From a virus (Duplodnaviria > Heunggongvirae > Uroviricota > Caudoviricetes), in the IMG/VR virus record IMGVR_UViG_2648501730_000022, positions 1 to 27,879 of that record: a stretch of 27,879 nucleotides of DNA; one strand, given 5' to 3'. Position numbers and translations under genes: made by a program. Position 1 is the stretch's first letter. Each line of letters starts with the position of its first letter. This document shows positions 3,713 through 27,879 of the stretch, one piece after another. The notes under the pieces are model-generated. The model was given only the letters and a program-made list of their open reading frames with translations. It did not search any database and was not told the origin of the DNA.

Positions 3713-6067
3713 TTACATCTTACGGCGTTGTGCGTCTTCTACCGCCTGAGCAACTAACTTAGCGTGACGTTTGATAGCATCCATGACCATCTTGTCTGAG
3801 CTATTAACGTTGCCGTTAATGTTCAAAGGTGCGTTAACTTCAATCGGCTGAGAGTTGCCACCGCCTGATTTTTGAGCAGCAAGGAAGTCTTTCAAATCAC
3901 CGTTAGTACGCTGATCAACTACTCGTTCACCCTTATCAAGCAACCATGTACCCTCACGAGGGATATTATCGATACCATCATGAGCCATACCGCTAACGTT
4001 AGTAGACTTGATGTTTGCGATGTTCCCCATGTTCTGAGAAACAGCCAATGCAGCAGCAGCGATCTTTTGTCCTGTGGTTACGTTGGTCGGATCGTTCCAT
4101 GCATCGGTAGCAGCCGTCCACATGTTCACCGTCGCTTGTCCAATGGAGAATGCTTTATGAGCATTGAAAGCCATCTGCATAGCTTTAGTGTTTTCCTGCC
4201 CGAAGAGAGTCATTGCAGCAGCAAAACCGCCATACATATCATCGGCTATTGACTGGCGAGCATCAGCATATTTCTTTTCAATTGCAGCCATCCGTTTTTG
4301 ATGGTTTTCATTGAGTTTTTCTAATGCAGCCATCCGTTTAGCTGGATCATTAATACCATCAATATTGAGTTTTTCGGTCTTATAATCTTGTTCAGCTTCC
4401 GATTTCTCTTGATCGATTGCATTAAATTTAGCAAACGGGTTATTTGAATCCTGATAGTCTAAGCTATTAGTCAATTGATTGGTTTTAAAACCATCCATTC
4501 CCTGTAACTGACTATCAATCTGAGAATAGTTTTGCTCGGTATCATTCACACGACGCATATATTCTTCGTAGGAGATAGCTTTACCATCAAGTAACCGTTT
4601 ATGGCTTTCTAGCTCGTTGTCCCTGATTTGTTGCAAAACTGTTAAGGCATTCAGAGCATCAATCGGATCAGCACCCAACATCATTTTATAGATGTTTTCT
4701 GCGTTCTGATCTAACAGTTGCTGACGTTTAGCGGCTGCGTCTTGCTGAGAGATTAAGCCCATATCTAAAGCAGTGTCTAAATCTTTCAAGCTGGCTTCTA
4801 ACTGCTTGTTTTGAGAAGCAATAGACGCGGCTGTCTGTCCTTGCAATTTAACATCAAGAGCATTCAGTCGCTTGATTGCATCCTCGCGTGCTTTCTGTGC
4901 TTTTTCTGCGGCTTCCTTAGCCTTTTTAGCTGCCTCTTCCGCTTTCTTCTTGGCTTCTTCTTGTTCTTTTTTCGATGGTCCGGTGACGCCTCCACCTTGA
5001 CCCGTTGGGGTAAATCCGGTATCCGATTTATTTCCAGTGATAGTAATTACCGGATCACCGTTTTTATCACGGGTAACGCCTTCACTATCCACCCAACGAT
5101 CAGGATAATTTGGTTTATTGTTGAAGCTGGCTTGTCCACCCGCTAGACCAGTAGAACTATAACCATGCTTGTTAATAAAACCACCGTTAGCCATAGCCAT
5201 ATTCTGGCGAGCTTTTTCAAACCTTTCATTAAAAGTCTTTAATGCGTTGAATAAAGCGGTCTTTTCCCAATCTTTATCAAACCAGTTGTAAAGATTATTC
5301 ATCCCTTCAACAACTGGATTTAGTGCATTTGCAGCCATACCCTTTAAGTTATCGGTAAGGGTATCCATATTTTTAGAGAATTTATTATATTCTTCGGCTG
5401 TGTCATTGGTGATTTTAACAGTTTGCTGATTAATGGCGTTTACAGCTTCCTGATAAGATCCGTATTTCTGCAATTCATCAGCCATATGACTTGAATCACT
5501 GGCTAACGATTCCATCATAAACTTAACATCAGCGATAGACGCACCAGCCTTGCGCATATCATAGAAGACCTTGATCGCCGCTTTCATCCCGCCTTGTGGA
5601 TCGTTCATAAACTCGGCATAATCTTTAATCTTCAAACCTACACTTTCTAGGTCGTCTTCAATACCGCCACCGTTACGCCATGCATCAGCCAGCTTATCTA
5701 AGGTGTCTTTGTTAATATCACCAAATTTCTCAACGGTTAAGCCAGTACCGGAGAATTGCTTCTCTAATTTCTGGAGTGTTTCGACGGTTAAACCAGTTGC
5801 TTTTGAAACTTCGCTGTATTCCTTTACATAATCACCGATGGCATTTGCAGCAGAAATAGCGCCAGCAGCCAAACCAACAAAACCACCAGCAGCCAAAGCA
5901 AGCGATCCACCAGTTCCGCGAAGGGTTCCACTTAAACTAGATAAACCACCAGACAAATCAAGATTCATTGCCCTTTCTGAAAGGTTATCAAGCATCTCTA
6001 TCGCCTGATTGGTACTTCTCCTTAGACCGTCATTATCTCCTTCTATTGTTACTATATGTCTTGTCAT
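3713..6067 (-). CDS. Tail tape measure protein (784 aa)
   Basis: Long, largely helical protein with Gly-rich hydrophobic segments and a Lys/Glu/Ala coiled-coil block (KKEQEEAKKKAEEAAKKAKEAAEKAQKA); sits directly after the chaperone pair, as in lambda G/GT/H. Confidence 0.85.
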   Translation of the reverse strand: MTRHIVTIEGDNDGLRRSTNQAIEMLDNLSERAMNLDLSGGLSSLSGTLRGTGGSLALAAGGFVGLAAGAISAANAIGDYVKEYSEVSKATGLTVETLQKLEKQFSGTGLTVEKFGDINKDTLDKLADAWRNGGGIEDDLESVGLKIKDYAEFMNDPQGGMKAAIKVFYDMRKAGASIADVKFMMESLASDSSHMADELQKYGSYQEAVNAINQQTVKITNDTAEEYNKFSKNMDTLTDNLKGMAANALNPVVEGMNNLYNWFDKDWEKTALFNALKTFNERFEKARQNMAMANGGFINKHGYSSTGLAGGQASFNNKPNYPDRWVDSEGVTRDKNGDPVITITGNKSDTGFTPTGQGGGVTGPSKKEQEEAKKKAEEAAKKAKEAAEKAQKAREDAIKRLNALDVKLQGQTAASIASQNKQLEASLKDLDTALDMGLISQQDAAAKRQQLLDQNAENIYKMMLGADPIDALNALTVLQQIRDNELESHKRLLDGKAISYEEYMRRVNDTEQNYSQIDSQLQGMDGFKTNQLTNSLDYQDSNNPFAKFNAIDQEKSEAEQDYKTEKLNIDGINDPAKRMAALEKLNENHQKRMAAIEKKYADARQSIADDMYGGFAAAMTLFGQENTKAMQMAFNAHKAFSIGQATVNMWTAATDAWNDPTNVTTGQKIAAAALAVSQNMGNIANIKSTNVSGMAHDGIDNIPREGTWLLDKGERVVDQRTNGDLKDFLAAQKSGGGNSQPIEVNAPLNINGNVNSSDKMVMDAIKRHAKLVAQAVEDAQRRKM

Positions 6068-6070: not shown

Positions 6071-6445
6071 TTACCCCAATTGTCCGCTCTTGAGCTTTTG
6101 TAATAATGAAGCGTCGAAAAAACTATCAACCAAAGCAGCGTTACGTTCTTCCTCTTTCTTACGAGCAATTTCTTTTATTTCTTCTTGCGTTTTAAATTGC
6201 TTGTCGTCCTTAATCATTCGGAATTGGTTAACATTGATTTTATTCAACCATTCACGAGTCATGTTAGGAGATGTAACGTGCATGTAATACATCGACTGTG
6301 CATGTCGCGCATCTTGAAACAGGGGGCTTTGTGGTTCAAGATATGTATCGAATATATGCAACGCCCAAAATAGCGTAATTGGCATATTATCCATCTCATC
6401 TTTACTCAAGCCCCGACGCATCATTTGCCGAAAATAAAAATTCAA
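6071..6445 (-). CDS. Tail assembly chaperone, -1 frame segment (T-like); probably made only as a frameshift fusion with the upstream ORF
   Basis: The track 'M' is a TTG codon with no ATG or obvious Shine-Dalgarno. This frame is open back into the last codons of the upstream ORF and ends 3 nt before the tape measure start. Confidence 0.45.
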   Translation of the reverse strand: MNFYFRQMMRRGLSKDEMDNMPITLFWALHIFDTYLEPQSPLFQDARHAQSMYYMHVTSPNMTREWLNKINVNQFRMIKDDKQFKTQEEIKEIARKKEEERNAALVDSFFDASLLQKLKSGQLG

Positions 6446-6453
6446 GAGCGGGT

Positions 6454-6762
6454 TTACTTTACCTCGTTTTCAATTACCGCCGCATCTTTCATCAATGATG
6501 CTTGAGCAACTAAGCCGATTAATTCGCTGCGGACGCTAGTATACAATGCCTTAACTTGTTCAATAGATTCAAATACTGGCTTACCGTCTTCATCTTCAAT
6601 ACAACGAAGAATAGAGCGTTCATCACGGTCTTTTTTATCAGTATTGAAAACATGTTCATTAAATTCTTGTACCGACATAGGGCGAGCATAGAACGTAAAT
6701 CCTCCGAGGGTTAAAGATTCACGTTTCGGAGAAAGAGCTTTCAGCATTTCATTCAGATTCAT
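6454..6762 (-). CDS. Tail assembly chaperone (G-like), 102 aa
   Basis: Small acidic protein immediately upstream of the tape measure region; ends ...GUA AAG UAA with the -1 frame open downstream. Confidence 0.55.
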   Translation of the reverse strand: MNLNEMLKALSPKRESLTLGGFTFYARPMSVQEFNEHVFNTDKKDRDERSILRCIEDEDGKPVFESIEQVKALYTSVRSELIGLVAQASLMKDAAVIENEVK

Positions 6763-6807
6763 TATTGTTTCCTCATTAATAGTGATTACGCTGTATTTAT
6801 TTAGAAT

Positions 6808-7314
6808 TTAAGAGATTTTCAAAGTCTGCTTAGTGCCAGTCTTCTTAATGTTATTGAGTAAAGCAGCCGGAGGATTGCTTAACCAATAGTAATGAAAACC
6901 GCTTTGCATACTGTTATAAGGAACAGTGACAGCAGCACCACCCAAATTAACGGTTATATTCCCCGCTCTACCGTTCTGGAGATATACAGCCATAGTAGGA
7001 GTACCGCCATTGAATTGACCAACGATAACGCCAATCAGACGCCCTACGCCCACGTTTTCGGGGTTCTCCATAGATCCTTTACCGCGCATGTCAGTTACTG
7101 GATAGTTTGAAGCAGTTACACCCCAGTTATTACCCAATGAAGTAGACCACGCAGCAGTAGCTACAACCGTATCCATACCACGACCACACATCGCACTCAT
7201 GTTAGCTGGGCGACTAACCTTTAATGCGTTCATTGCTGCGCTCATCCATCGTTGACCAGTTACAGAAACAGCAGATGACCCGACCCAGCCAGGCTTATTA
7301 ACGACATTCGCCAT
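6808..7314 (-). CDS. Hypothetical tail-associated protein (168 aa)
   Basis: ORF between the tail tube gene and the chaperones; Gly/Asn-rich beta-type composition; no recognisable motif. Confidence 0.35.
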   Translation of the reverse strand: MANVVNKPGWVGSSAVSVTGQRWMSAAMNALKVSRPANMSAMCGRGMDTVVATAAWSTSLGNNWGVTASNYPVTDMRGKGSMENPENVGVGRLIGVIVGQFNGGTPTMAVYLQNGRAGNITVNLGGAAVTVPYNSMQSGFHYYWLSNPPAALLNNIKKTGTKQTLKIS

Positions 7315-7329
7315 TTTGATTACTCCAAT

Positions 7330-7356
7330 AAAAAAGCCCCACCATTAAGGCAGGGC
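7330..7356 (-). terminator. Rho-independent terminator after the tail tube gene
   Basis: Minus-strand RNA GCCCUGCC-UUAAU-GGUGGGGC followed by U6 (plus-strand A-run 7330-7335). Near-identical to the terminator after the capsid gene. Confidence 0.7.
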
Positions 7357-7362
7357 TTATAA

Positions 7363-7482
7363 TTAATCTTTAGCCTTGCGGCTTCGTTTAGCTGTGGCTT
7401 TCGCCGTAACTTCTTCTACTTCTGGAATCACCACCGCTTCATGTTCCGGCTGTGGTTCCGGTTCGGGAAGTTCTTCGTTAGT
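7363..7482 (-). other. In-frame post-TGA extension of the tail tube gene (39 sense codons + TAA)
   Basis: Reading on past TGA at 7483-7485 gives TNEELPEPEPQPEHEAVVIPEVEEVTAKATAKRSRKAKD then TAA at 7363-7365; homologous to the extension after the capsid gene. Confidence 0.5.
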
Positions 7483-7956
7483 TCATCCGGCAGTGAAGAT
7501 TTGCTGTTTCAGCGGAGCACCATCCACCGCGAAGGTAAACTCTTTGGTTACAACTTCTTCATCGCCACCGTTCATAGCAACTTTAGAAATGAAGCCGTTG
7601 AAAGCGGTGCGAATACCAGTCTGTTTTGCTGCGTCAACGTAATATTCTACTTTAATCTGAATACGAGTACCGTCTTCGGCAGCTTTGATCAGTTTTTCAT
7701 GTACCGCATCGCCTGGGATGTAGTTAACGGTCAGAGTCAGATCAGGAACGTTCAGCTTCCCTACCAGTTTACGGTTATACTGAGAAGAGAAGGATTTAAC
7801 TTCTACAGTACCGCGCTCGATACCAGTTTCAGGAAAACCAGCACACTCTTTAATTTCTTCGTAGCTTTCGTGGTCGAGAGCGGTATTAGTGGTGTCCGCG
7901 TGATAGAACAGACTTACCAGACCACCAGTAAAAATATCTTTGAATTGCTGAGACAT
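7483..7956 (-). CDS. Putative major tail tube protein (157 aa)
   Basis: Short protein upstream of the chaperones and tape measure, followed by a strong terminator. ATG at 7954-7956 preceded by a GGGG Shine-Dalgarno. Homologous to the N-terminal ~160 aa of the 277-aa protein at 11595-12428 (shared DIFTG, FP.T, LTL, KA.ED motifs). Confidence 0.5.
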   Translation of the reverse strand: MSQQFKDIFTGGLVSLFYHADTTNTALDHESYEEIKECAGFPETGIERGTVEVKSFSSQYNRKLVGKLNVPDLTLTVNYIPGDAVHEKLIKAAEDGTRIQIKVEYYVDAAKQTGIRTAFNGFISKVAMNGGDEEVVTKEFTFAVDGAPLKQQIFTAG

Positions 7957-7986
7957 AGAATTACCCCTTAATTAAAATTGTTATTA

Positions 7987-8005
7987 CGGGGGAACTAGTC
8001 CCCCG
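7987..8005 (-). other. Hairpin CGGGGGA-ACTAG-TCCCCCG between fibre and tail tube genes
   Basis: 7-bp perfect stem; the same stem sequence recurs at 25555-25573. Confidence 0.5.
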
Positions 8006-8012
8006 ACTTTTA

Positions 8013-11000
8013 TTATTTAGTTGCTTTCAGTTCGGCAATTTCTTTCTGTAATGCTTCGATCTGGGCTTTATATTTGGCGTCCATTTCCTGCATAGCTTTG
8101 ATGATTAAAGCATTGACAGCAGAGTTAGAAATAGTCTTGATTGCTTCTGGATTTTCTGGATCTTCGGTGGATTGAATACCTACTGCTTCCGGCAATACTT
8201 CTTCCAGATCCTGAGCAATAATACCTACTTCGCGTTTAATCACACTACGGTCTTTAAGAGATTTAACTTTATCGTAGGTGTAGACTTTCAGTGAGTTTAC
8301 TTTCTCTAATGCGCCGTCCTGTAATTCTTCCTTGTTAATCTTCAAACGGGAGTCAGAGCGAATGTAAACATCGTTAAACGAACCGTTACGACCTGCGGTA
8401 AAGTCACCAGCAGCGTTAAAGTCAAAGTTAGTATCATGAACATGGAGACGAACAAGAGCGTTACCGATAGTACCGTCAGGAACGTGCACACCCATTGCTG
8501 CAATGTGATATTTACCCCAATGCGTCGCTTTCCATACGTTATGTGCCGAGTTGGTGGATTGAGGACACCCAACCATAAGACCAGCAGCACGGTCACGCCA
8601 GCTAGCCCAACTACCGCCAGCAACTTCACCACGAATCAGGCCATTACCGCCACCGGTTACAGTACCAGATTCCAACTGGATCATCTTATCCGCAAGTTTC
8701 CACGTCTGGGCTTGTTTCTGACCACGGAAGCGAATAACACCAGCATCATCGGAATACATCAAACCTAGTTCTAAGCCATTCGGATCTCTAAACCACAAAT
8801 GCTTATTACCAGTGCGCTTAAATTCAATATCAGCACCGTTAAGCGTGATATTACCGCCAGTGTGAATTGCTTGAGGCTTAACAGTACCGTTGATGGCAAA
8901 CTCAATTGCCGTAGTACCCGGACCGCCCGGACGTTGGGTATACCAATGCCAACCGCTTTCATCAGCACATTCAAATACTTGTTTACGAGCATCAGCGCCC
9001 CATGCACGAATATTGAAACTAGAAGTAGCTGTACCCTTACCCCAGCGAATCAGACCAGCAGATTCCAAATCACCGAAGAATTTAGTTTTAATCGCACCAG
9101 TTGCTAAAGTACGTTCAGTGGTGAAGTGAGCACCTTTACTATCTTCAAGCTGTATAACGTTATCACGAGCGTTATTGCTATCGCCCCAATGACTCAAACG
9201 GAAATAGTCGCGGGATTGTCCAGCACCAGCATCAAATGTTAAATATTGGCCTTTAATGTATGTGTTTCCAGCAAAACGAGCAGCACGACTTGCACGTTCT
9301 AAGACTAATGCACCTTCGTTACCATCACCACCCAAAGTAACATTACCGCTACCCAGATTGTAAATGAATGGACGATAGCCGTTCCAACCACCAAATTTAT
9401 CATTTTCGGCAGTAGACAGAAGATATACGTTTTGACCATCATTACGCCAGAATGCACCATAGTTACCGTAAATCATACGGAATGCATCACTGTTAGCAGC
9501 TACATATTGACCATTGGTGTATACAATTTTGGTAGCACCTGTGCTTAAAGATACTTGACCACTTGCTTCTAATTTAACAAAGTTTTTACCTTCGTCACTA
9601 TACCATTGAAAATCGTTAGTATCTGTAGAACCAAAACCAAACCAGCCTTGACGTTTATTAGCCCCGTCTCGCTGATCCATATATTCAAAATAGTTACTAC
9701 GACCAGTAGGACGCCACATACGAATCGCGTTATTGCCTTGCAGATGAAGTCTATCGACAAATAAACCATCACTACCAACAATTTTTAATACTTCTTTTTG
9801 GTCGGTGGAACCAGTAGCCAAACGATACACATCACCTTGAACAGTTTCATGCCATATTGTTTCCGCCGCACGACTGCGGAATTTACGCATATATTTTTTA
9901 TTGTTGTCTGGTACGTTATTAAGGCTCACAATATCATAGGTTGCTTGTGAGTTATTATCAAACATCAACGTTCCGGCTTTGTTTTCGGTGTTGAACATCG
10001 TAATAACACGAGCATCGGTAACACCAACAGAAGGTTTAACGAGAGTTAATTCAGGAACATCATGTACTGTCAGAGTAACGCCATCAGTTTTACCGTATTC
10101 GACAATAACGTTATCGGTGTAACGACCGTAGTTAACGTAGATATCGTAGTTATCACCGGAAGTATTAACCGCAAATACTTGATGAACGTTCAGAGCATTT
10201 CGACGATAAGCAGCAATACTAACGCCTTTCGGGTTATTGTTACCGGAACGGATGACAATTTCTACAAAGTCAACCTGATCATAAGAGTTAACGTTATAAC
10301 CATTACCACCGAAGATACGAAGCATTACCATTCGACCATTCTGTGGGATCGTAGCGGTTGCGATCTTGAAGTATCCACGAGTAGCATCACCAGAAGGAAC
10401 GGTCATTCTAACGTTCTTGATGAACATCTGATCAACTTCGGCTTTACTATACACACCCAATTCAGTCGGAGTCGGCTTATCACCTTCGTGATACATGCGG
10501 TAGCTGAATCGCTTATTACCATCTTTATCAAAGCCATAGGTTTTAACTTGAGATGAGCTAGACCCATAGTGGAACTCAAAACCGCGACCGTGTGCTTTAC
10601 CGCCAGAATGAGGAATGTTAAGGATTAAGTTACCCCAACCTTCGGCATTGTTTGGACGGAATGCACCAAAATAATCAAGGTTACGAGCACCAGCATCATC
10701 AAAATAGTTAGCTGTTTTGGTTAACAGATAGCCGTGATGGTAAGTGTTGGTATTCTTCTTGATGTAAGCAGCATCGGCACTACCTTCAATAGAATCAATT
10801 CGCTGGTTAGCTGCGGCAATTGCGGCATCAGTAGAAGATTTATTCTGGTCTACCTTGTTGTTAATTGCTGTATGGTTGCTATTAACTGTCCCCGTAAGAT
10901 TGGTGATCTTCGTGTCGGCATCGCGTTTATTATTTGCTACGGTCGTTTCTATGGCTGATTTATTTGCTGAGACAGTATTCGTTAAGTTAGTAACGTTGGT

Positions 11001-11513
11001 ATTAGTCTGATCAACTCGTGCATTAATATCTGTCTTGTTCTTGTTAATTGTTGCGTTGATAGTATCGCGGGTTGAAGTAATAGTCTGATTCAGTTCAGTC
11101 TTAGCAGCCGCCAGAGCGTTAGCCGCTTCGGTTTTATTGTTACCTACTGTGGTAGTCAAAGCATCAATTCGTTTGTTGGCTGCGGTGTCGCCAGCAGTGA
11201 TTGAAGCATTGAGAGCATCACGGGTAGAAGTGATAGTCTGATTCAGTTCAGCTTTAGCACTAGCCAGATTATTAGCGGCTTCTTGTTTGTTGGAAGCAAT
11301 AACACGGTCAGTGCTAGTTTTGTTATTGTCTACTTTCGTATTCAGTTCAGCGTGTTTTTCTGGAGAAACACTAATTTGGACTACGTTATTATTTTTGTCT
11401 TTGGTGTAAATCACATGATCCGCCAACTGTAAGGCGATTTCACCCTGTGATAATTGTTCCGGCGTTGGTTTTTTACCCGCCGTCTGTGTGCGTTTAAATT
11501 GGATTGATTGCAT
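8013..11513 (-). CDS. Long side tail fibre (1166 aa) with C-terminal intramolecular chaperone / peptidase S74-like domain
   Basis: ATG at 11511-11513 with GAGGTGA Shine-Dalgarno. Internal ~52-aa repeats near the N-terminus; a central motif (DESGWHWYTQR) recalled as P2 gpH / lambda Stf-like; C-terminal ~110 aa (SDSRLKINKEEL...VGIIAQDLEEVLPEAV...) matches the self-cleaving chaperone of T5 pb1 and K1F endosialidase. Confidence 0.75.
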   Translation of the reverse strand: MQSIQFKRTQTAGKKPTPEQLSQGEIALQLADHVIYTKDKNNNVVQISVSPEKHAELNTKVDNNKTSTDRVIASNKQEAANNLASAKAELNQTITSTRDALNASITAGDTAANKRIDALTTTVGNNKTEAANALAAAKTELNQTITSTRDTINATINKNKTDINARVDQTNTNVTNLTNTVSANKSAIETTVANNKRDADTKITNLTGTVNSNHTAINNKVDQNKSSTDAAIAAANQRIDSIEGSADAAYIKKNTNTYHHGYLLTKTANYFDDAGARNLDYFGAFRPNNAEGWGNLILNIPHSGGKAHGRGFEFHYGSSSSQVKTYGFDKDGNKRFSYRMYHEGDKPTPTELGVYSKAEVDQMFIKNVRMTVPSGDATRGYFKIATATIPQNGRMVMLRIFGGNGYNVNSYDQVDFVEIVIRSGNNNPKGVSIAAYRRNALNVHQVFAVNTSGDNYDIYVNYGRYTDNVIVEYGKTDGVTLTVHDVPELTLVKPSVGVTDARVITMFNTENKAGTLMFDNNSQATYDIVSLNNVPDNNKKYMRKFRSRAAETIWHETVQGDVYRLATGSTDQKEVLKIVGSDGLFVDRLHLQGNNAIRMWRPTGRSNYFEYMDQRDGANKRQGWFGFGSTDTNDFQWYSDEGKNFVKLEASGQVSLSTGATKIVYTNGQYVAANSDAFRMIYGNYGAFWRNDGQNVYLLSTAENDKFGGWNGYRPFIYNLGSGNVTLGGDGNEGALVLERASRAARFAGNTYIKGQYLTFDAGAGQSRDYFRLSHWGDSNNARDNVIQLEDSKGAHFTTERTLATGAIKTKFFGDLESAGLIRWGKGTATSSFNIRAWGADARKQVFECADESGWHWYTQRPGGPGTTAIEFAINGTVKPQAIHTGGNITLNGADIEFKRTGNKHLWFRDPNGLELGLMYSDDAGVIRFRGQKQAQTWKLADKMIQLESGTVTGGGNGLIRGEVAGGSWASWRDRAAGLMVGCPQSTNSAHNVWKATHWGKYHIAAMGVHVPDGTIGNALVRLHVHDTNFDFNAAGDFTAGRNGSFNDVYIRSDSRLKINKEELQDGALEKVNSLKVYTYDKVKSLKDRSVIKREVGIIAQDLEEVLPEAVGIQSTEDPENPEAIKTISNSAVNALIIKAMQEMDAKYKAQIEALQKEIAELKATK
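11051..11300 (-). repeat. Tandem in-frame ~156-nt repeats inside the fibre gene
   Basis: Two near-identical blocks (...AGTCTGATTCAGTTCAG...) encoding repeats of the form A.AK.ELNQTITSTRD.INA.I; further diverged copies upstream. Confidence 0.6.
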
Positions 11514-11544
11514 CTAGAATCACCTCACTATAAAACAGGAATAA

Positions 11545-11562
11545 GGGAGGCGTTAACCTCCC
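11545..11562 (-). terminator. Hairpin GGGAGG-CGTTAA-CCTCCC between the 277-aa gene and the fibre gene (attenuator-like)
   Basis: 6-bp GC stem followed by a U-rich tract on the minus strand, upstream of the fibre Shine-Dalgarno. Confidence 0.4.
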
Positions 11563-11594
11563 AACGTTCATGTTTTATTTAGGTAGGAGAATCC

Positions 11595-12428
11595 TTAGTA
11601 TTCGCCGAAATCGATCCGGTCAGTCTTAGCCACTGCGCCAATTTCGCTAGGTGTCGGTTTCTCATTGGTGGAATATACCTTGATCCATTCAGAACGACCG
11701 TTTTCCTGAATATTTCGGACACGTAAACGCGGTGCGCCAGAAGTATTACAGGTTAATTGCCATGCGCCATGCTCATTAGCTTGAAGGTGAATTAATGCTG
11801 TGTCGGTTGAATATGGATTACCGCTAGCAGTTCCCTTGTAAGTTACGAAACGGTTTCCGGCTAATGCCTCGCTGTCAATCGGACCCGTGAATGGATTTAC
11901 ACCAGCACCCAAACCAAAATCACCCTGACGTAAGATCCGGCCTTCGGTAGCAATACCCCTTGCCAAAATCCCGCCATCTGGTTCAAGTTTAAATTCCAGT
12001 GTTACAGCTTTGTTATCACTACCACGGGTTTTATGTGATGTGACGTAAGCATCGAATATACAAAAGTACCCTGTGTTAGCAGCACTATAGCCAGAGTTCA
12101 CAACATAGAACATACGGAAGCGTAAAGGTGTTTTATCCTCTACCGCTTTCATCAACATTGCTTGATGTTCATCGTCAAGAACACGGTTTAATGTGAGTGT
12201 TGTCGGTTCCAGTCTACGATAACCAGCAAGTTTCCCCGTAGCGTCCTGATCGTACTCTTCCAGAGTTTCTATCTCTGTGGATTCGGTTAGCGTAGGGAAT
12301 GCTGCGATGTTCTCCATAGAACTAAAGCTAGGATCGAAAAAGTCGACCTGATTGTCTATCTGGTTAGAGATCGACACTTCAACATGTGATCCAGTGAAAA
12401 TATCTAAGTTATCTTGTGTAATATTCAT
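11595..12428 (-). CDS. Tail-tube-like paralog with extra ~115-aa C-terminal domain (277 aa)
   Basis: N-terminal ~160 aa homologous to the 157-aa tail tube protein; unique C-terminal domain. Confidence 0.45.
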   Translation of the reverse strand: MNITQDNLDIFTGSHVEVSISNQIDNQVDFFDPSFSSMENIAAFPTLTESTEIETLEEYDQDATGKLAGYRRLEPTTLTLNRVLDDEHQAMLMKAVEDKTPLRFRMFYVVNSGYSAANTGYFCIFDAYVTSHKTRGSDNKAVTLEFKLEPDGGILARGIATEGRILRQGDFGLGAGVNPFTGPIDSEALAGNRFVTYKGTASGNPYSTDTALIHLQANEHGAWQLTCNTSGAPRLRVRNIQENGRSEWIKVYSTNEKPTPSEIGAVAKTDRIDFGEY

Positions 12429-12437
12429 TATTACCCC

Positions 12438-12860
12438 TTAAAAACGCGCTAGATAAGAAAATTTAAGGCTAAGTGTCCCAACGATACCCCCATCACTAGA
12501 ATCATCGTCATAATCGGTATTAGAAGCTACTGGAGTGATATCTGAAATAGAGAAGCCCAAATCTTTAAATCGTGGGTTATCCGGCTGAATCTGGATTATC
12601 TGGCAAATACCCTCATGGATTTTTGTTTCATGAATCTGAGAATATAATTGCATTTCGATAACGCATTCAGCTTGCATTGCATTACCACCACGAACACGCG
12701 TATAAGTTTCATTCATGCCAGTAATCCAACAAACCACGTCATCACTAAAGCCTTGCTGAGTTTGTTCTACGTTTAAAGCCAGACCTAAATCTTGTTCGAT
12801 AATATCTTGCAAGGCGCGTTTGATTTTCAGTCTCGGCATATTATTAACGGTAGCGAGCAT
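12438..12860 (-). CDS. Head-tail connector / tail completion protein (140 aa)
   Basis: Assigned by position between capsid and tail genes; overlaps the upstream gene by 17 nt. Confidence 0.3.
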   Translation of the reverse strand: MLATVNNMPRLKIKRALQDIIEQDLGLALNVEQTQQGFSDDVVCWITGMNETYTRVRGGNAMQAECVIEMQLYSQIHETKIHEGICQIIQIQPDNPRFKDLGFSISDITPVASNTDYDDDSSDGGIVGTLSLKFSYLARF

Positions 12861-13134
12861 GTGTACCCCCTGCTAAAGTGATAAAGCAATCACAAGTATT
12901 GTCACCATTGCGCTTAACGTATTGAACTTTGAAACGCTGGTTTTCTACTGTGACAATATCACCTTGCTTTAAGTCTCCCTCACGACAGAATAGAAATTCG
13001 GTTTCTGTCATTACACCTGATTCGTCGGTAGTAGTAATTTCATGGTAAGCACGAATTGATTTACCACCTTCCACCGAAAATACAGGAGCACTTTTAAACA
13101 TTCGATTTAATTGTGATTCTGATAATTTGAACAT
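12844..13134 (-). CDS. Head-tail adaptor / head completion protein (96 aa)
   Basis: Small ORF immediately after the capsid terminator; assigned by synteny. Confidence 0.3.
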   Translation of the reverse strand: MFKLSESQLNRMFKSAPVFSVEGGKSIRAYHEITTTDESGVMTETEFLFCREGDLKQGDIVTVENQRFKVQYVKRNGDNTCDCFITLAGGTHARYR

Positions 13135-13164
13135 AGTTACCCCCTTTATGGAGTATTTACATAC

Positions 13165-13190
13165 AAAAAAGCCCCACCGTTAGGCAGGGC
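13165..13190 (-). terminator. Rho-independent terminator after the capsid gene
   Basis: Minus-strand RNA GCCCUGCC-UAAC-GGUGGGGC followed by U6 (plus-strand A-run 13165-13170). Confidence 0.7.
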
Positions 13191-13196
13191 TAATTA

Positions 13197-13325
13197 TTAT
13201 TCTTTAGTTTTACGTTGTTTTTTAACTGTGGCTTTCGCCGTAACCGTCTGAGATTCTTCTTCCTGAGATGGAATCAGATTTTCTTCCCCCAAATCGGGGG
13301 AAGGTTCAGATGGTTCTACGTTAGT
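13197..13325 (-). other. In-frame post-TGA extension of the capsid gene (42 sense codons + TAATAA)
   Basis: Reading on past TGA at 13326-13328 gives TNVEPSEPSPDLGEENLIPSQEEESQTVTAKATVKKQRKTKE then TAA TAA (13194-13199). Confidence 0.5.
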
Positions 13326-15332
13326 TCATTCAGCGGAGATGTGAAGAACTTTCAGAGCTTCCGGCTGAACTACGGTGAAGTCCAGGTCTACCCAGATACG
13401 CGGAACGATAGCAGACTGTGCGCGGTAAGTGGTGTCGTCCATATCCAGTTCCAGACCACCCCATTCACCGATCATGATACCGGAGAAGTCACCCAGAACG
13501 ATGTGGTCTGCCGGAATAACGCCAGAAGTAACTACATCGTAACCAGCCAGTTTGCCGTTTTCGATGATATAACCGGAAACGCCGTTATCTTTCAGGGTAG
13601 ATTCCAGTTCAGCAGCAGTTGCACCGCTCATTGCAAACTTGATGGACTGTGCCGGAACGCCAGCGTCGGTCAGTGCTGCAATTTCTTTCAGGAAGTCTTT
13701 GTAGCTAAAAGCGGCTTTCTTAGTAACGCGACCACCGTCTACCAGTTGCTTAACCAGACCTTTCGGACCGCGCTCGTTGTCTTTGTCAGACAGAATCAGT
13801 TGTTCCAGTTTGATCCGAACAGATTTGTTAATGTGATCAGTGATCAGGGTAGCAATATTCGGAACAGTTTTCAGAGACTGACGGCTGATCGGGTTGCCAC
13901 CAGCAAAAGTTTTCGGAGCCATTTTCACGTTTTCAAAGCTAGCCTTCGATTCGGGGGCACTTCCATTTTCATCAACAAAACCAAAGGCTTCGACGCTGGA
14001 AGCAGTCATTTTTGGTACTGCAATCGGGCTATTCAGACCAGACAGAACAGTCACACCCAGACGACCCAGAACAGACTGTGGAAGCAGCATTTCTACATAG
14101 GATTCGGTCAGCAGTTTTTCGTCGGTTACAGCGGTCAGAGTAGCTTTGGTGTTACCTTCGGAAGCAGCACGCAGAGCAGCAGCCGGAACGAATACAGAGC
14201 CACCGCGAGCAGCACGACCACGCTGCATTGCAGCACCAGCAGCCATAGCGGAATATTCAGCTTCGTTAGCGCCGAGCACGTCGCCATCTACCAGGGAGCG
14301 GATTACGTTATTAAGATCGAAAGTTTTTTCCATGATTTGTTCCTTATTAATTTGTTCGTTATTACGTTGAGCATTGGTAATGTTATTTAGTGCCTTAGTG
14401 CGGAATGCTTCCGGCGTCATATCTTTAACTGCCAATGCGCGTTCTAATTCTTCGTCGTTAATATTTAACTCACGAGCGATTGCTCGGATTTCTTCTTCGT
14501 CTTCTTCGGAACGTTCAGCCACTTCTTCGATTTTTTCTTCTTCAACCGGAGCGGCTTCACGTTCTTCTTTTACTTCTTCTGTTTCCCGAACAGTTGAACT
14601 ATCATCATCAACACTTTCAGGATGTTTAGCGTCTTTTCCGTCTTCGAGATTTTCATCTTCTTTATTCTCTTCAACTTGGCGCTCTTGAGTTTCTTCTACT
14701 TCCGGTTCTTTATTTTCTTCTACCGGAGTTTCTTCAACCTGAGCGGGTTCTTGTTCTTCTTTGATTTCTTCGATTTGTTCTTTAGTCATATCGCGTTTAG
14801 CCTCCAAATTAACTGTGATAGTATTTAGAGAGCGATTCAGACCCACGGTGTCGTCTGCGGGAACAGACACCCATGAAACCTCGTGAGGAATCCATTTAGT
14901 AACAATCAATTGTCCTTTGGTGTAGTCGATGTGATATTCTTTAATGTCATAACCGACAGAAATTTTTTCCATCGTACCTTCAATGACTTTATTACGAATA
15001 TCATTAGCCAAAGTGCCATGCTTAGAGAATTTAACCAGAGCACGACCTACGTTATCCGCATCGATTCGAGCGTTACAAACGACACCAATATGATTATCGA
15101 AATTATGATTGAACAGCAACGGAGCGTTATTATTCAGACGAGACAGATCAACCGCTTCCGGTGTATGTACCAGAATTTCATCTAATACCACCATTTCTTG
15201 ATTTTGCTCATCCCAGAATTGGCGCTGATAAGGCTGTTCACTGGAGAAAGCAATTTCAAATTCGTATTGATCATTCTGCCCTTCGTTAATAACTCCACCG
15301 TAACCGTTAAGATCGCGGCGAAATTTAAGCAT
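13326..15332 (-). CDS. Fused prohead protease (HK97/S78-like) / scaffold-like acidic coiled coil / major capsid protein (668 aa)
   Basis: N-terminal ~170 aa carry a His (HNFDNHIG) and the ExSxVxxPA signature (HEVSWVSVPADD) typical of HK97-family prohead proteases; residues ~180-300 are Glu/Lys-rich and helical; the C-terminal ~350 aa look like an HK97-fold capsid domain. Confidence 0.7.
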   Translation of the reverse strand: MLKFRRDLNGYGGVINEGQNDQYEFEIAFSSEQPYQRQFWDEQNQEMVVLDEILVHTPEAVDLSRLNNNAPLLFNHNFDNHIGVVCNARIDADNVGRALVKFSKHGTLANDIRNKVIEGTMEKISVGYDIKEYHIDYTKGQLIVTKWIPHEVSWVSVPADDTVGLNRSLNTITVNLEAKRDMTKEQIEEIKEEQEPAQVEETPVEENKEPEVEETQERQVEENKEDENLEDGKDAKHPESVDDDSSTVRETEEVKEEREAAPVEEEKIEEVAERSEEDEEEIRAIARELNINDEELERALAVKDMTPEAFRTKALNNITNAQRNNEQINKEQIMEKTFDLNNVIRSLVDGDVLGANEAEYSAMAAGAAMQRGRAARGGSVFVPAAALRAASEGNTKATLTAVTDEKLLTESYVEMLLPQSVLGRLGVTVLSGLNSPIAVPKMTASSVEAFGFVDENGSAPESKASFENVKMAPKTFAGGNPISRQSLKTVPNIATLITDHINKSVRIKLEQLILSDKDNERGPKGLVKQLVDGGRVTKKAAFSYKDFLKEIAALTDAGVPAQSIKFAMSGATAAELESTLKDNGVSGYIIENGKLAGYDVVTSGVIPADHIVLGDFSGIMIGEWGGLELDMDDTTYRAQSAIVPRIWVDLDFTVVQPEALKVLHISAE

Positions 15333-15352
15333 TTAATCACCTTTAATTAATT

Positions 15353-15369
15353 GGGGGCATTGCGCCCCC
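15353..15369 (-). other. Hairpin GGGGGC-ATTGC-GCCCCC between portal and capsid genes
   Basis: 6-bp G/C stem in the 45-nt intergenic gap. Confidence 0.45.
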
Positions 15370-15377
15370 GTTGGTTA

Positions 15378-16889: not shown

Positions 16890-16899
16890 GATTTACCCC

Positions 16900-17394
16900 T
16901 TATCGCGTAAGACGTAATTTGATATTTTTAATCGGACTAATTCCCTGTTTACGTCGTTCGGCTTGAATTAATTTAGATAACTGACGTTCATAATCAGTCT
17001 TTAATTGCTGGAGAACAGCCAATGACTCATAGGCGAAAGTATTCCCTTTCACTGTCATTTGAGATAATGCGGCTTCGTCCCCAGATAAACGGGCGAAAAT
17101 AACTTGCTCGATTAAGGCGATAGTTTCCCGCAGATATTCTTTTTTGGATTGTTTGGCGAATACTGGCAAAACAGTTAATTCCTGCATTGATACCAGTTCT
17201 TCTTCCAAAGTTATTACGATGGTATATTTACCTTCGGCAAAATCTAAGGTTTTAATCTCATGATTAGCCGGAGAATCATCAACCTGATAGATAATACCTT
17301 TATTATTTCCTACCTGAATTGTTACACCCTCTTCATTCGCCAGCGTGACTTTTTCGCCTTTACGAATTACTAAGGGAATTAGTTCTAAACTCAT
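16900..17394 (-). CDS. Head-tail joining protein with gpW-like C-terminal half (164 aa)
   Basis: C-terminal ~70 aa follow the lambda gpW pattern (recalled, not aligned); sits between large terminase and portal as in lambda A-W-B. Confidence 0.45.
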   Translation of the reverse strand: MSLELIPLVIRKGEKVTLANEEGVTIQVGNNKGIIYQVDDSPANHEIKTLDFAEGKYTIVITLEEELVSMQELTVLPVFAKQSKKEYLRETIALIEQVIFARLSGDEAALSQMTVKGNTFAYESLAVLQQLKTDYERQLSKLIQAERRKQGISPIKNIKLRLTR

Positions 17395-17442
17395 AATTAC
17401 CCCTTATTTAATTGTTATTGGATTAACAATATTTAGGAGTAA

Positions 17443-17461: not shown

Positions 17462-17466
17462 AGTTA

Positions 17467-19371
17467 TTAGAACGATGTTACCCAGCTACGGCCTCTATTT
17501 GGGCGTCTGGCGATGTTTTTACGTTGTGGTCGTGTGATTGGCTTATTTTCTTCGATTTGCTCGTCAGATTGCGATTTAGGAGCTTCTACGGGTTCTTCTG
17601 GTTCGCGGTTCAAACTATCTTTGATGGCTTCGAGTTTTTCCCATGACATTTTATTGAGTACATGGCGAGAAGCAGCATAGGAATAAGCCAGGCAGTCGAG
17701 AGCCTCGTTTCGTTGCTGACCAACTTTTACCCAACGTGTGGTATTACCCTGCCGTTTCAACTGTTCAGATAACAATTGTTCGCAGTAGTCATCAGGAACG
17801 TCACCAATCTGGAAGACCGTATGAGGATCGCTGTCTCTCAAGTTCCGGTTAATCATTTCACGGATCATCGTCTTAAGGTTGTTTACGCCCAGAATTTTAA
17901 GAGTAAAACCACCCGTTCTTGTGTCCTTGACCGGAAGGATTGGAGCATCAACATTGCTTGCCCCTTTAATGGCGCATAGGTTTTGCCACCTAGTGCAGAA
18001 GCGATAGATCACGTTTGTAGCTCGTCCGTTCGATGAGTCCACGAAAGCAGATAGCATCGGGATTCGTTGACCTGATCGGGTATAGAATTTAGCTTTCAGG
18101 AAGTTGTAAAGCTGGTCATATGCTGGCGATTCGTGGCGTTCGCAGTTCACATCATAGAATGATCGGTGATCAACTACGCATATCCCCTTACGAGAGATAC
18201 CCAGCAAGGTAGATTCCAGACGGTCTTTTTGCTGGTCAACTCCACCTACCAGAGCCAGAACATCATCAGGAATATTATCTAAGCTAATGTCAGTTTTCAG
18301 CGTTTCCAGTTCGTCGGCTGTGCGGTCTTCGTTAAGATCATCGAAGGTTTCACCGAGCACCACATTATAGAACGTTGCCAGTGACATATTCGCGTAGCTA
18401 TCAGCAAAGTCCACCACACACGCACGGATAGAACTAAACGGAGACATAAGGCGGTTAGCATGAAAACCGATTACTTCCGCATTTGGTTCGGTGGCGACCC
18501 ATTCTCCCTGAGCAACAGCACGGAGGCGATCTGGTTCTGACCAATCAGTTTCACATGACGGGCAACGGTAAACGGCTGTGTCTGGATTCGGCAGTGATTT
18601 ACCATTGATTACATGCCAATCAAAGAATACTCTACTCCATTCCATTACGTGTTTGTGTCCGCAATGCTGGCAAACGACGTGGTATTTTCTTTTATCCGAG
18701 AGTTCCCATTGTTGGTTTATCGCCCCATCCCGCGAAGTTGGAGTAGAAGCAATTACGATCCTTGCATCATCACCGAAAGTGGTTGCGCGTTGTTCCGCTA
18801 GCTGGATCGGGTTCCCTTCGTCTGACTCATCAGCCGCATCAACTTCATCCAGAATAATCAAAGGCAGTGTCTTACCGCGCAAGTGTGATGGACTGTTCAG
18901 CGACATGAAATACATGAATGATCCGTTACGAAGCTGAATAATCGATGAGTTGTTAACGGCATTGCGATCTGATTTGTCGGTGATCATCGCCTTTAATTCT
19001 GGGGTTGCCTCTAATACTGGCTTCACCTTACCCGCAATCCATGAGTTCAATTCTCGAACGTTCGCTTGCAAAACACCGATATTAGTAGGGTTACTGGCGA
19101 TCCTGTGAAAGATAATACCGTTTAGCACAAGAGTTTTACCCAACTGTGCCGAGCACTTTAGCACAATTTTTCGCCTATCTTCGGTGATCGCGTCCATCAT
19201 TCCACGTTGGAAGGGATGCAACTTAATTAGAGATCCGGCTTTAACACCATCGGTTGCAACTACATTAGCCTCTACCCATTCGCTAGGTTTCATCGTTTTA
19301 GGTGGGCGAATTGCCGCAGAGATATTTTTAAGAATCTTTTTTAATTTGGCCTTATTAGAAATCAGTTTCAT
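17467..19371 (-). CDS. Terminase large subunit, lambda GpA-like (634 aa)
   Basis: Walker A motif (KCSAQLGKT) near the N-terminus; Cys-rich segment (CQHCGHKH...CPSCETDW); size and position match lambda gpA (641 aa). Confidence 0.9.
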   Translation of the reverse strand: MKLISNKAKLKKILKNISAAIRPPKTMKPSEWVEANVVATDGVKAGSLIKLHPFQRGMMDAITEDRRKIVLKCSAQLGKTLVLNGIIFHRIASNPTNIGVLQANVRELNSWIAGKVKPVLEATPELKAMITDKSDRNAVNNSSIIQLRNGSFMYFMSLNSPSHLRGKTLPLIILDEVDAADESDEGNPIQLAEQRATTFGDDARIVIASTPTSRDGAINQQWELSDKRKYHVVCQHCGHKHVMEWSRVFFDWHVINGKSLPNPDTAVYRCPSCETDWSEPDRLRAVAQGEWVATEPNAEVIGFHANRLMSPFSSIRACVVDFADSYANMSLATFYNVVLGETFDDLNEDRTADELETLKTDISLDNIPDDVLALVGGVDQQKDRLESTLLGISRKGICVVDHRSFYDVNCERHESPAYDQLYNFLKAKFYTRSGQRIPMLSAFVDSSNGRATNVIYRFCTRWQNLCAIKGASNVDAPILPVKDTRTGGFTLKILGVNNLKTMIREMINRNLRDSDPHTVFQIGDVPDDYCEQLLSEQLKRQGNTTRWVKVGQQRNEALDCLAYSYAASRHVLNKMSWEKLEAIKDSLNREPEEPVEAPKSQSDEQIEENKPITRPQRKNIARRPNRGRSWVTSF

Positions 19372-20405: not shown

Positions 20406-21203
20406 TTACAGTCCGAAGTGTTCTAGCGATCCAACATTCTGACGAATCATGATAGTCGCTTTATTCTGAATCATGATCGTGTTATTCGGTTTAGGCAGTG
20501 TCAAAGCTGCTTTTTGTTCTTCTTCAAGAACACCCAATTCAACCAGCACCGGAAGCACATCAACAGTGAAAGAAAGTTGATAGTGAGCGTTCATGCTGCA
20601 AAACGGTATCGCGGAATCATTAGCAACATACCCACACGGCTTGTTATTTTCATCATAGACGCGCTCAATGTATCCGGCAGTACGTAAGGCCGTCAGTGCT
20701 TCTTTAACCTTCGTAGCGCCCTTTTTAGCACCTAACAGACGCGTCATTGAATGGCTATCTACGGATTTGCGATGATGTAGAGTAATCAGTTGCTTGTTCT
20801 CGCGAGTTTTCTTTAACGCCAGTTCGATCCAGTCGGTTTCTTCAAAGTCTGCATACGGGTTAACGGCTAAACGTTCCTGACGCAGTTTTTCATTTTCTTC
20901 TTTCAGTCGTTTCCATTCCTGAATAACAATCATTCGACGTTTAACATCGTAACCAGTAACAAGAGTCAGCGTCATTTCTTCGTCAAGGTGATATTCGGTT
21001 TGTTCGCGTCCATATTGGTCAAAATAGATACGCTGAGATTTCAGCGCATCTAATTCAAGTGCTTTAAACATCTTAACAATATCAGCTTTAACGTTTTTGT
21101 GTTCTTTTCCGGTAAATTCAGCGATCTGACGAGAAGACATGGTCAGTGGTTTGGTGTTATCAACAACCAGAGACACGGAAGCAGTTTTAACAGCAGTATT
21201 CAT
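20406..21203 (-). CDS. Phage regulatory protein Rha family (antirepressor-like), 265 aa
   Basis: N-terminal LTMSSRQIAEFTGKEHKNVKADI matches the Rha-domain signature; AAGGGGGA Shine-Dalgarno before the ATG. Confidence 0.75.
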   Translation of the reverse strand: MNTAVKTASVSLVVDNTKPLTMSSRQIAEFTGKEHKNVKADIVKMFKALELDALKSQRIYFDQYGREQTEYHLDEEMTLTLVTGYDVKRRMIVIQEWKRLKEENEKLRQERLAVNPYADFEETDWIELALKKTRENKQLITLHHRKSVDSHSMTRLLGAKKGATKVKEALTALRTAGYIERVYDENNKPCGYVANDSAIPFCSMNAHYQLSFTVDVLPVLVELGVLEEEQKAALTLPKPNNTIMIQNKATIMIRQNVGSLEHFGL

Positions 21204-25624: not shown

Positions 25625-26179
25625 TTAAGACACATCAAATTCATCGTCTTCTTCTGGTTCTTGTTCCGGTTCATCCATTAATGCTAATTCTTCTTCCTCG
25701 TCTTCTCCCAAATCTGCATTTTCGAACAAGTCCCCTACTTCATTTAAACGACGTTCGATGATCTCCCTTAGCTTATTCTTCAATGTTTTCTGATCAGTGG
25801 CGGATTCTAAAATTTCTAGGGCATCGATCGTACAAATCTGCAAAATAGTCTGTTTCACTTTCCCGCAGTATTCCGCTAGTTCCTGTTCTACATAACCGAC
25901 AGGAATCAGGAGATTCATTTTTTCCTGGTTCTCTCGTTCGGCTGCATCTGCCAAAGCACGTTCACGGCGTAATTTCTCTACGTCGATTTGTTCTTTGATA
26001 GAAGTTTGTTTAAGCGGGTTGATAATATTTTTCAAGACCCATTCTGTTCCTTCTTTGGCTGGCACGCGGCGGGTATTGGTGTTAAATGGCAATCCCCTTT
26101 CTAACCATCGCTTACCGCCACCATTCAATGTATAGCCATATAAACGGGAAATTTCTGTAAGGGTTAATTCTTCTTTCAT
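25625..26179 (-). CDS. DNA-binding protein, possibly terminase small subunit (lambda Nu1-like), 184 aa
   Basis: N-terminal HTH-like LTLTEISRLYGY, then GGGKRWLERGLP and EKLRRERA, recalled as resembling Nu1 (181 aa); acidic C-terminal tail. Confidence 0.4.
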   Translation of the reverse strand: MKEELTLTEISRLYGYTLNGGGKRWLERGLPFNTNTRRVPAKEGTEWVLKNIINPLKQTSIKEQIDVEKLRRERALADAAERENQEKMNLLIPVGYVEQELAEYCGKVKQTILQICTIDALEILESATDQKTLKNKLREIIERRLNEVGDLFENADLGEDEEEELALMDEPEQEPEEDDEFDVS

Positions 26180-27528: not shown

Positions 27529-27879
27529 TTATTTGGGGTTGACTACATTCGGGTTGCCAATTCGCCTGGCTAACTCTTGCTGAGTGATTTCTGACTGTAA
27601 AAAAGCATTTAACAGCAATACCTTAGAGGCGACGCTCAAAGGTACTTCAATAAAATGATCGTGACTATTTAATGGCGAAGGTAACGGGATAAGCTCGTTA
27701 TCTTCAAAATAAAAATCAAATGCGGTCAGTAAAGCATCTTTTGCCGCTTCCATCGCTTCAGCGACAGTTTCGCCCTGGGTCAACGCTTCAGGGATATCCA
27801 CAAAAGAAACCATATAACCGCCTTCCGGCGCGGGTGTAAGAGTGACGGGATAACGCATAATTTCGACTGTCTCTCGCAT
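27529..27879 (-). CDS. hicB: HicB antitoxin N-terminal domain with C-terminal HTH truncated; probable host gene interrupted at the prophage junction
   Basis: MRETVEIMRYPVTLTPAPEGGYMVSFVDIPEALTQGETVAEAMEAAKDAL... is a HicB N-terminal domain and matches my recollection of E. coli HicB. The ORF stops at ...QQELARRIG-NPNVVNPK*, inside the first helix of the expected Xre-type HTH. The ATG is at the window edge. Confidence 0.65.
   Translation of the reverse strand: MRETVEIMRYPVTLTPAPEGGYMVSFVDIPEALTQGETVAEAMEAAKDALLTAFDFYFEDNELIPLPSPLNSHDHFIEVPLSVASKVLLLNAFLQSEITQQELARRIGNPNVVNPK

Follow-up and report, generated by a model that had tools for sequence, protein, structure and literature searches.

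Two overlapping tail assembly chaperone reading frames in an Escherichia coli prophage and their probable joining by a -1 ribosomal frameshift

The stretch of DNA analyzed here (hereafter the window), 27,879 nucleotides (nt) in length and covering positions 1 to 27,879 of IMG/VR record IMGVR_UViG_2648501730_000022, is the structural module of a siphovirus-type prophage of Escherichia coli. The genes around positions 6,071 to 6,762 are encoded on the minus strand, and codons are given below in descending coordinates. Two small open reading frames (ORFs) overlap in this region, directly ahead of the gene for the tape measure protein, and are referred to as G and T after the corresponding pair of phage lambda. 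From the analysis of the sequence and its relatives, the prophage in all likelihood makes two tail assembly chaperones here, as lambda does, namely G itself and a fusion of G and T (GT) that would be reached by a -1 ribosomal frameshift at A_AAG before the stop codon of G. The evidence for this reading is a slip motif and a frame relation that are kept across distant relatives (Table 1), codons of the T frame that are conserved ahead of any start codon, and the identity of G. Coordinates of the features are collected in Table 2.

The overlap and its slip site across relatives

A preliminary description, made from the letters of the window, had G ending in GAG GUA AAG UAA, and the sequence agrees, on the minus strand, with GAG (6465-6463), GTA (6462-6460), AAG (6459-6457) and TAA (6456-6454). 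The downstream ORF had been placed in the -1 frame, open across the last five codons of G. This was borne out: the frame is closed by TGA at 6472-6470, is open from 6469 and runs for 132 codons to TAA at 6073-6071, which lies 3 nt before the ATG of the tape measure gene (6067), and the overlap of G and T amounts to 16 nt, about the last five codons of G. The statement that the downstream ORF lacks an ATG is correct for its 5' end, where the listed start is TTG 6445, but not for the frame as a whole, which holds two adjacent ATG codons at 6424-6419. The only good re-pairing site within the overlap is A_AAG (6460-6457), which is also the only cognate one to be conserved, and a slip on it reads AAA GTA AAC CCG as had been described. 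A canonical X_XXY_YYZ heptamer is not present in the overlap; G_GUA_AAG is canonical only in its A-site half, A_AAG, which constitutes a minimal Z_ZZN site on which one transfer RNA (tRNA) can re-pair cognately in the -1 frame. The fusion predicted from this slip, with the junction ...IENEVK-VNPLLNFYFRQMM..., has 230 amino acids (aa) and a mass of 26.9 kDa, somewhat above the earlier estimates of about 225 aa and 25 kDa. The short product, put at about 11 kDa, was computed at 11.6 kDa.

Loci for comparison were gathered by means of the tape measure protein (40 IMG/VR contigs) and of G homologs, and from E. coli phage DCP80 and one metagenome-assembled genome. T was found in the -1 frame in every examined lineage without a homopolymer run, with these lineages spanning prophages of E. 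coli, Salmonella, Proteus and Edwardsiella, phage DCP80 and the IMG/VR contigs. In the overlap of every -1-frame relative, an in-frame NNA_AAG (once NNA_AAA) occurs at the same alignment position (E/x-K before the junction), within surroundings that are heavily diverged among these lineages. The predicted fusions are 226-234 aa long throughout and, outside the closest clade, only 32-44% identical; conservation of the overlap among relatives had been proposed as a check, and both the -1 relation and A_AAG are kept at this level of divergence. In-frame NNA_AAG makes up 0.31% of the dicodon positions in the window genes, which corresponds to a chance of ~1.6% in a five-codon overlap. The joint chance over eight lineages would be ~3e-13 if they were independent, a figure that overstates the significance because the lineages are related.

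Table 1. Slip sites at the 3' end of G in the window and its relatives
Lineage	Slip site	Remark
Window clade, Proteus, Salmonella	G_GTA_AAG_TAA	
L058	T_GTA_AAG_TAA	
L059	G_GCA_AAG_TAA	
L060/61	G_GTA_AAG_TAA	codon before GTA GAG->GCG
L055	G_GTA_AAA_TAA	
L054 (Edwardsiella)	G_GTA_AAG_AAA...	stop lost
L033 / L042	G_GAA_AAG_TAA	
L032, L037	G_GAA_AAG + 1 codon + TAA	
L039 / L041	A_GAA_AAG + 1 codon + TAA	
L035	A_GTA_AAG + 12 codons	
L038	A_AAA_AAG	canonical heptamer
DCP80	U_UUA_AAG	canonical heptamer

The slip cassette also occurs in a number of natural variants. In L026 (~3609), a duplication of GTA gives GTA AAG TAG TAA ACC. In L054 (~1806-1821) the change of TAA to AAA lengthens G by four codons, as also seen in the 106-aa proteins P0035, P0045 and P0049, and in L055 (~1803-1809) AAG is changed to AAA. 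Further changes at the 3' end of G are GAG to GAT in L058, GTA to GCA in L059 and GAG to GCG in L060 and L061. These variants (AAG->AAA, TAA->AAA, GAG->GAT/GCG, GTA->GCA and the GTA duplication), together with the A10/+1 lineage described below, form a natural mutational series which could be used to define the minimal requirements of -1 frameshifting in E. coli.

A different place of entry into T was also weighed, namely a -1 slip at GAA_AAC (6471-6466), with tRNA-Asn moving from AAC to AAA to give ...VIE(N)-RGKVNPLL.... The -1 frame can already be read at this point, being open from 6469, and GAAAAC is invariant in the two closest clades. However, it is missing in close relatives that have the same arrangement (GAG CAA in L052 of Proteus; GAA GAA in Salmonella and in E. 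coli L053, L055 and L057) as well as in all distant relatives, and in L052 no more than two codons of open -1 frame precede A_AAG. Motifs ending in AAC are, moreover, far less shift-prone in E. coli than those ending in AAG (PMC5009743). A slip at GAA_AAC is accordingly considered very improbable, and A_AAG is retained as the predicted site.

Two distant relatives, L034 (3604-3640) and L036 (3592-3632), are arranged in another way. Their G ends in GAA AAA AAA AAT AAG AAG TGA, with an A10 run at the homologous E-K position, and the T-like ORF follows in the +1 frame. Here a homopolymer seems to have taken the place of the -1 site, which would imply a +1/-2 ribosomal slip or transcriptional slippage. 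Slippage of the polymerase is plausible in these two loci and raises the question of whether the shift in the window might also take place at the level of the RNA, by a base added or removed in transcription. The window junction has only A3 runs (GTAAAGTAAAC), far too short for a process that requires long homopolymers (PMC5009743), and an RNA-level shift is scarcely credible for it.

Translation ahead of any start codon and the identity of G and T

The two closest clades supplied 28 distinct G-T sequences, and in all of them the 31 nt of the junction GTAATTGAAAACGAGGTAAAGTAAACCCGCT are identical; no other 30-nt segment sampled along G-T is without a variable site. From the slip to the first ATG there are 11 codons of the -1 frame. 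In 15 haplotypes from five genera the third position varies in 10 of these 11 codons, yet the encoded N, P, L, F, Y, R and Q never change; the synonymous switches seen are TTG/CTG/TTA/CTA, CGG/CGA/CGC/AGG/AGA, AAC/AAT, TTT/TTC, TAT/TAC and CAA/CAG. Judged by this pattern, these 11 codons are under purifying selection.

These codons bear directly on the possibility that the downstream ORF is independent, starting at ATG 6424 or 6421 (or at TTG 6445), possibly through termination-reinitiation, with no fusion being made. The ATG pair lies 30 nt and the TTG 9 nt past the stop of G, gene callers and RefSeq give a separate protein of about 116-117 aa, and in reporter assays a tetramer on its own, with no stimulator, gives very little frameshifting (PMC4066793). 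The starts chosen by the gene callers differ among near-identical sequences, giving products of 117, 116, 104 or 63 aa. No Shine-Dalgarno sequence was found within 20 nt of the ATGs at 6424-6419, a GAGG lies 16 nt before the TTG, and none of the candidate starts has a Shine-Dalgarno sequence, which G and the tape measure gene do have. TTG 6445 is unconserved, being CTG, TTA or CTA in relatives, and in L059 the ATG pair is missing, with GCG CTT in its place. An independent start would also leave the constrained stretch N-P-L-L-x-F-Y-x-R-Q upstream of the ATGs. In nine divergent fusions, F109 and R112 are invariant and precede the first ATG codons (M114, M115), with R116 and G118 directly after, and in L032, L037 and L039 the first ATG, GTG or TTG comes only at codons 32-39, past the whole of the conserved F..R...R.G motif. 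Finally, independent initiation needs neither a constant -1 relation nor a slip motif, yet both are always present. Given the constrained codons ahead of the starts, the relatives without starts and the lack of Shine-Dalgarno sequences, independent initiation cannot yield the conserved N-terminus of T, and we regard it as improbable.

Entry from G by a -1 shift would then be the only consistent reading of the conserved N-terminus of T, and neither TTG 6445 nor ATG ATG 6424-6419 is judged to be its real N-terminus. The preliminary description had looked to an internal ATG with a Shine-Dalgarno sequence as the finding that would speak for a separate gene; there are ATGs, but they lack the Shine-Dalgarno sequence and lie downstream of conserved coding sequence.

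G matches the PHROG family phrog_344, tail assembly chaperone (E=1.8e-7). Against Pfam it reaches 22.4 bits with Phage_TAC_13, below the gathering cut-off of 28.8, and this family is matched by seven of the nine family members. An AlphaFold model of G, built on 30 homologs, is of moderate confidence (predicted local distance difference test, pLDDT, 77). The best match of the model in the PDB, using Foldseek, was the tail assembly chaperone of HK97 (2OB9; E=1.4e-3, probability 1.00, template modeling score 0.55-0.58, 22% identity). The next PDB match had an E-value of ~2, and the named matches among viral models were tail assembly chaperones. A profile search of PDB sequences gave no match, and none to 2OB9 at the sequence level. 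By sequence family and by modeled fold, G is a tail assembly chaperone.

T is homologous to the -1 frame of DCP80 (tblastn E=1e-9), with the alignment beginning upstream of any start codon, and its family comprises 20 representative clusters among 1.84 billion proteins. The Pfam family Phage_tail_T (PF06223), which represents lambda gpT, is weakly matched by five of the nine family members, the best with E=4.3e-4. No natural in-frame fusion of G and T was found among the 1.84 billion representatives, where the matches covering most of T are all of 130 aa or less, and this fits a need for both products.

It also bears on the idea that the split is a frameshift mutation, or a sequencing error, in a former single gene of 230 aa. 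A few loci do appear as decayed prophage copies: the G frame is open for only 54 codons in L008, and the T frame has only 34 codons in L031, both probably through decay. For the pair as a whole, the assembly collection has the exact G protein in 1935 of its blocks, and 50 of 5426 complete E. coli genomes contain the G-T region, with both ORFs there labeled 'hypothetical protein'. The same split recurs across genera down to 32% identity, with no intact single ORF among the representatives searched. A decayed or mis-sequenced gene is given next to no weight.

Possible course of the slip and its stimulators

In the course proposed for the window, most ribosomes would make the 102-aa chaperone and stop at TAA 6456-6454, and a smaller share would slip back by one base at (G_GU)A_AAG, where the single E. 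coli tRNA-Lys (anticodon mnm5s2UUU) on AAG (6459-6457) would re-pair with AAA (6460-6458), and reading would resume in the -1 frame with GTA AAC CCG CTC TTG. The product would be the 230-aa fusion, with an N-terminal chaperone half and a C-terminal gpT-like domain. If matters stand as in lambda, the tape measure protein would be coated by the G parts, and the scarce GT molecules would bring the tail tube protein to it, at a low GT:G ratio that would be fixed because the frameshift efficiency sets it. We infer the production of the fusion itself, the GT:G ratio, the exact state of the ribosome at the slip and the lambda-like roles of the two halves. One E. coli tRNA-Lys reads both AAA and AAG (PMC5009743), and no other tetramer in this species comes near A_AAG in its tendency to shift by -1 (PMC4066793).

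A number of observations weigh against this reading. Tetramers without a stimulator shift barely above background (~0.15%) in E. coli reporters (PMC4066793). The heptamer G_GUA_AAG is not canonical, since a shifted tRNA-Val would face GGU with a central mismatch, and in the close relative L055 the slip tetramer A_AAG is replaced by A_AAA. In the window, the 87 nt from the stop of G fold no better than shuffled sequences (z=+0.67), and the first 60 nt past the slip do not fold better than shuffles in any of nine lineages; at 100 nt past the slip, L032, L035 and L039 reach z of about -2 to -3, with no consistent structure in the nine lineages. The Shine-Dalgarno-like GAGGU was rejected as a stimulator, being only 1 nt away from the slip codon and unconserved (GATG in L058; GCGG in L060/61). 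In dnaX, the Shine-Dalgarno sequence lies 10 nt upstream of the slip site. As for the link of T to lambda gpT, T of the window itself has no match in Pfam, and its comparison with lambda GT by hhalign is weak (E=0.031), F-R-x-M-M-R-x-G-L-S being aligned to W-R-A-M-L-A-G-M-S of lambda T. Homology of T to lambda gpT is therefore suggestive and not conclusive. The efficiency of frameshifting here may be low, which would be compatible with the logic of the chaperones, the ratio of G to GT in lambda being about 30:1 (PMC5009743).

Two courses of the slip are possible at A_AAG. tRNA-Lys may slip in the P site while UAA waits for the release factor, or slippage may occur in the A site or in tandem during translocation, with tRNA-Val partly re-pairing on GGU at positions 1 and 3. 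The preliminary description had a P-site slip with UAA in the A site. Its placement at A_AAG stood, and the part concerning the P site and UAA was not established, several relatives being without an adjacent stop. Most members of the close subfamily have the stop next to the slip codon, as do L033/L042 independently. The stop is not adjacent in L035, L038 and DCP80 and is replaced by AAA in L054 of Edwardsiella. As the slip site is kept in these four without an adjacent stop, the stop cannot be essential and would be a stimulator at most. The base before the P-site codon equals the first base of that codon in most lineages (G_GUA, G_GAA three times, U_UUA, A_AAA), and G is kept in L060/61 despite the change of GAG to GCG. 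The rule is broken by A_GAA, A_GUA and T_GUA (L039, L035, L058). It may be, as a suggestion only, that G at 6463 matters for the partial re-pairing of the P-site tRNA-Val.

A further step would be to see in (G_GU)A_AAG_UAA a compact cassette free of RNA structure, with the adjacent stop as the only stimulator and the P-site tRNA-Lys slipping as it awaits the release factor. This is put forward tentatively and is rather doubtful. If true, it would tie the GT:G ratio to the release-factor activity of the host and to the modification of tRNA-Lys. For lambda infection, a connection of frameshifting with tRNA modification has been drawn (PMC3296357).

Genomic setting and comparison with known systems

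The minus strand of the window encodes terminase, portal, a fused protease/major head protein, tube-like proteins, a T4-like long tail fiber, a gp38-like adhesin, G, T, the tape measure protein and a pb9-like distal tail protein. The order around the pair, read along this strand, is tail tube, gp38-like adhesin, G, T frame and tape measure, with the tube gene in the position of lambda V and the adhesin gene between it and G. Receptor-binding genes are thus embedded within the tube/chaperone block (6808-12428, minus strand), and phrog_158 is matched by both tube-like proteins. Over its N-terminal half, the major head protein (668 aa) has a further match, to a 'major head and protease' PHROG, which points to a fusion of prohead protease and capsid in one gene. 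On the flanks of the packaging genes there are an Ant-type anti-repressor and a fragment of a HicB-like antitoxin, and a candidate for the small terminase lies ~6 kb from the large terminase.

Table 2. Coordinates of the features discussed, in positions of the window
Feature	Position	Strand	Remark
G-like tail assembly chaperone ORF	6454..6762	-	ATG 6762-6760, stop TAA 6456-6454; 102 aa, 11.6 kDa
Shine-Dalgarno GAGGA of G	6770..6774	-	
T frame	6071..6469	-	
Slip site A_AAG	6457..6460	-	within degenerate heptamer G_GTA_AAG (6463-6457)
Stop TAA of G	6454..6456	-	immediately 3' of slip codon; possible 'shifty stop' stimulator
T-like segment, -1 frame after predicted slip	6071..6457	-	128 codons: GTA 6457-6455 through GGG, then TAA 6073-6071
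Candidate independent starts	6419..6445	-	TTG 6445-6443; ATG ATG 6424-6419 (7-8 codons past TTG)
Tape measure protein gene	3713..6067	-	784 aa; PHROG phrog_13674, tail length tape measure protein, E=4e-71
gp38-like adhesin	6808..7314	-	directly upstream of G
Tail tube protein gene	7483..7956	-	157 aa; PHROG phrog_158, major tail protein, E=3e-21; Pfam Phage_TTP_11/12; RefSeq label 'phage tail tube protein'
T4 gp34/37-like long tail fiber	8013..11513	-	1166 aa; has Peptidase_S74 chaperone domain
Tube-like protein	11595..12428	-	277 aa; phrog_158 match
Major head protein	13326..15332	-	668 aa
Large terminase	17467..19371		
Ant-type anti-repressor	20406..21203	-	
Small terminase candidate	25625..26179		
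HicB-like antitoxin fragment	27529..27879	-	

A megablast of the G-T region against 50,697 phage records gave no match, and the sole relative among deposited phages, detectable at the protein level, was E. coli phage DCP80. Its 141-kb record (L001; PQ671644.1, region 8000-22000) is classified as Straboviridae/Tevenvirinae/Gaprivervirus, yet at 13.2-16.9 kb it has tube, G, T and tape measure genes in a module of the siphovirus type, every one of them labeled hypothetical; either the taxonomy or the assembly of this record is odd. A word-indexed protein search with the 230-aa fusion gave no match, and a scan of species-representative genomes returned one locus only, of the L033 type. A search with G alone found homologs of 59-90% identity in Salmonella, Proteus and Edwardsiella, mostly named 'cytochrome', and this label is carried by G homologs (P0022-P0048) in NCBI/RefSeq records of E. 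coli, Salmonella, Proteus and Edwardsiella. It looks like a propagated misannotation, as fold and PHROG family both say tail assembly chaperone. The right gene model for this common prophage family of the Enterobacteriaceae would be the G product together with the 230-aa GT fusion. Current records label the chaperone genes 'hypothetical protein' or, in error, 'cytochrome', start the second ORF at arbitrary codons and do not annotate the slippage.

The preliminary description had recognized the classic G/GT arrangement before a tape measure gene, and this was upheld by the -1 relation, the slip motif, the chaperone identity of G and the adjacent tape measure gene. Levin, Hendrix and Casjens reportedly described in 1993 the -1 frameshift of lambda G/GT at G_GGA_AAG, and the arrangement is reported to be conserved across long-tailed double-stranded DNA phages (Xu, Hendrix and Duda, 2004). 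The window shares with lambda a pair of small ORFs set between the genes for tail tube and tape measure, of which the second is in the -1 frame and without initiation signals. In both, the slip site ends in A_AAG, read by the single E. coli tRNA-Lys, there is no obvious RNA stimulator, and G has the tail assembly chaperone fold. In the family, the T half gives a weak Phage_tail_T signal, and its F/W-R-x-M-L-x-G-L/M-S motif aligns weakly to lambda T. Unlike lambda, the heptamer is G_GUA_AAG and not G_GGA_AAG, so that P-site re-pairing would be imperfect; the stop directly follows the slip codon, with five more codons in lambda, and the overlap is only 16 nt. The proteins are of 102 and 230 aa, against 140 and 279 aa in lambda, with no significant pairwise sequence similarity, and a gp38-like adhesin gene stands between the tube gene and G.

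NNA_AAG sites are also used by the IS1222 transposase (G_CGA_AAG) and occur in Bacillus subtilis cdd (A_CGA_AAG), and their efficiency depends on the 5' codon (PMC5009743). As at those sites, a single tRNA-Lys would re-pair from AAG to AAA, with the upstream codon giving only its third-base A. Unlike them, the 5' codon is GUA here (GAA, GCA, UUA or AAA in relatives) and not CGA, and the biological role is different. The placement of the stop right behind the slippery codon, seen in the window clade and, as a separate occurrence, in L033/L042, recalls the 'shifty stop', in which, as Weiss and colleagues reportedly described in 1987, a slowly decoded stop codon in the A site promotes slippage of the P-site tRNA. 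prfB and antizyme are +1 examples of the 'shifty stop'. The direction here is -1, unlike in these two, and the stop is dispensable in L054, L035, L038 and DCP80. Compared with stimulated -1 frameshifting of the dnaX or IS3 type, no downstream hairpin or pseudoknot was found here and no well-placed upstream Shine-Dalgarno sequence. The HK97 chaperone 2OB9 is the best structural match of the modeled G, with no detectable match at the sequence level.

The pair thus offers a well-conserved natural example of -1 frameshifting predicted on a minimal NNA_AAG, with no detectable RNA stimulator and often with an adjacent stop, which would be useful for frameshift predictors, trained as these mainly are on canonical heptamers. 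The understanding of tail assembly is unchanged by it. Very probably the mechanism is an ordinary one, well known in phages, and the slip signal is unusually minimal. As far as can be read from its sequence, the pair has the defining genomic features of a lambda-type G/GT system, except for the canonical heptamer.

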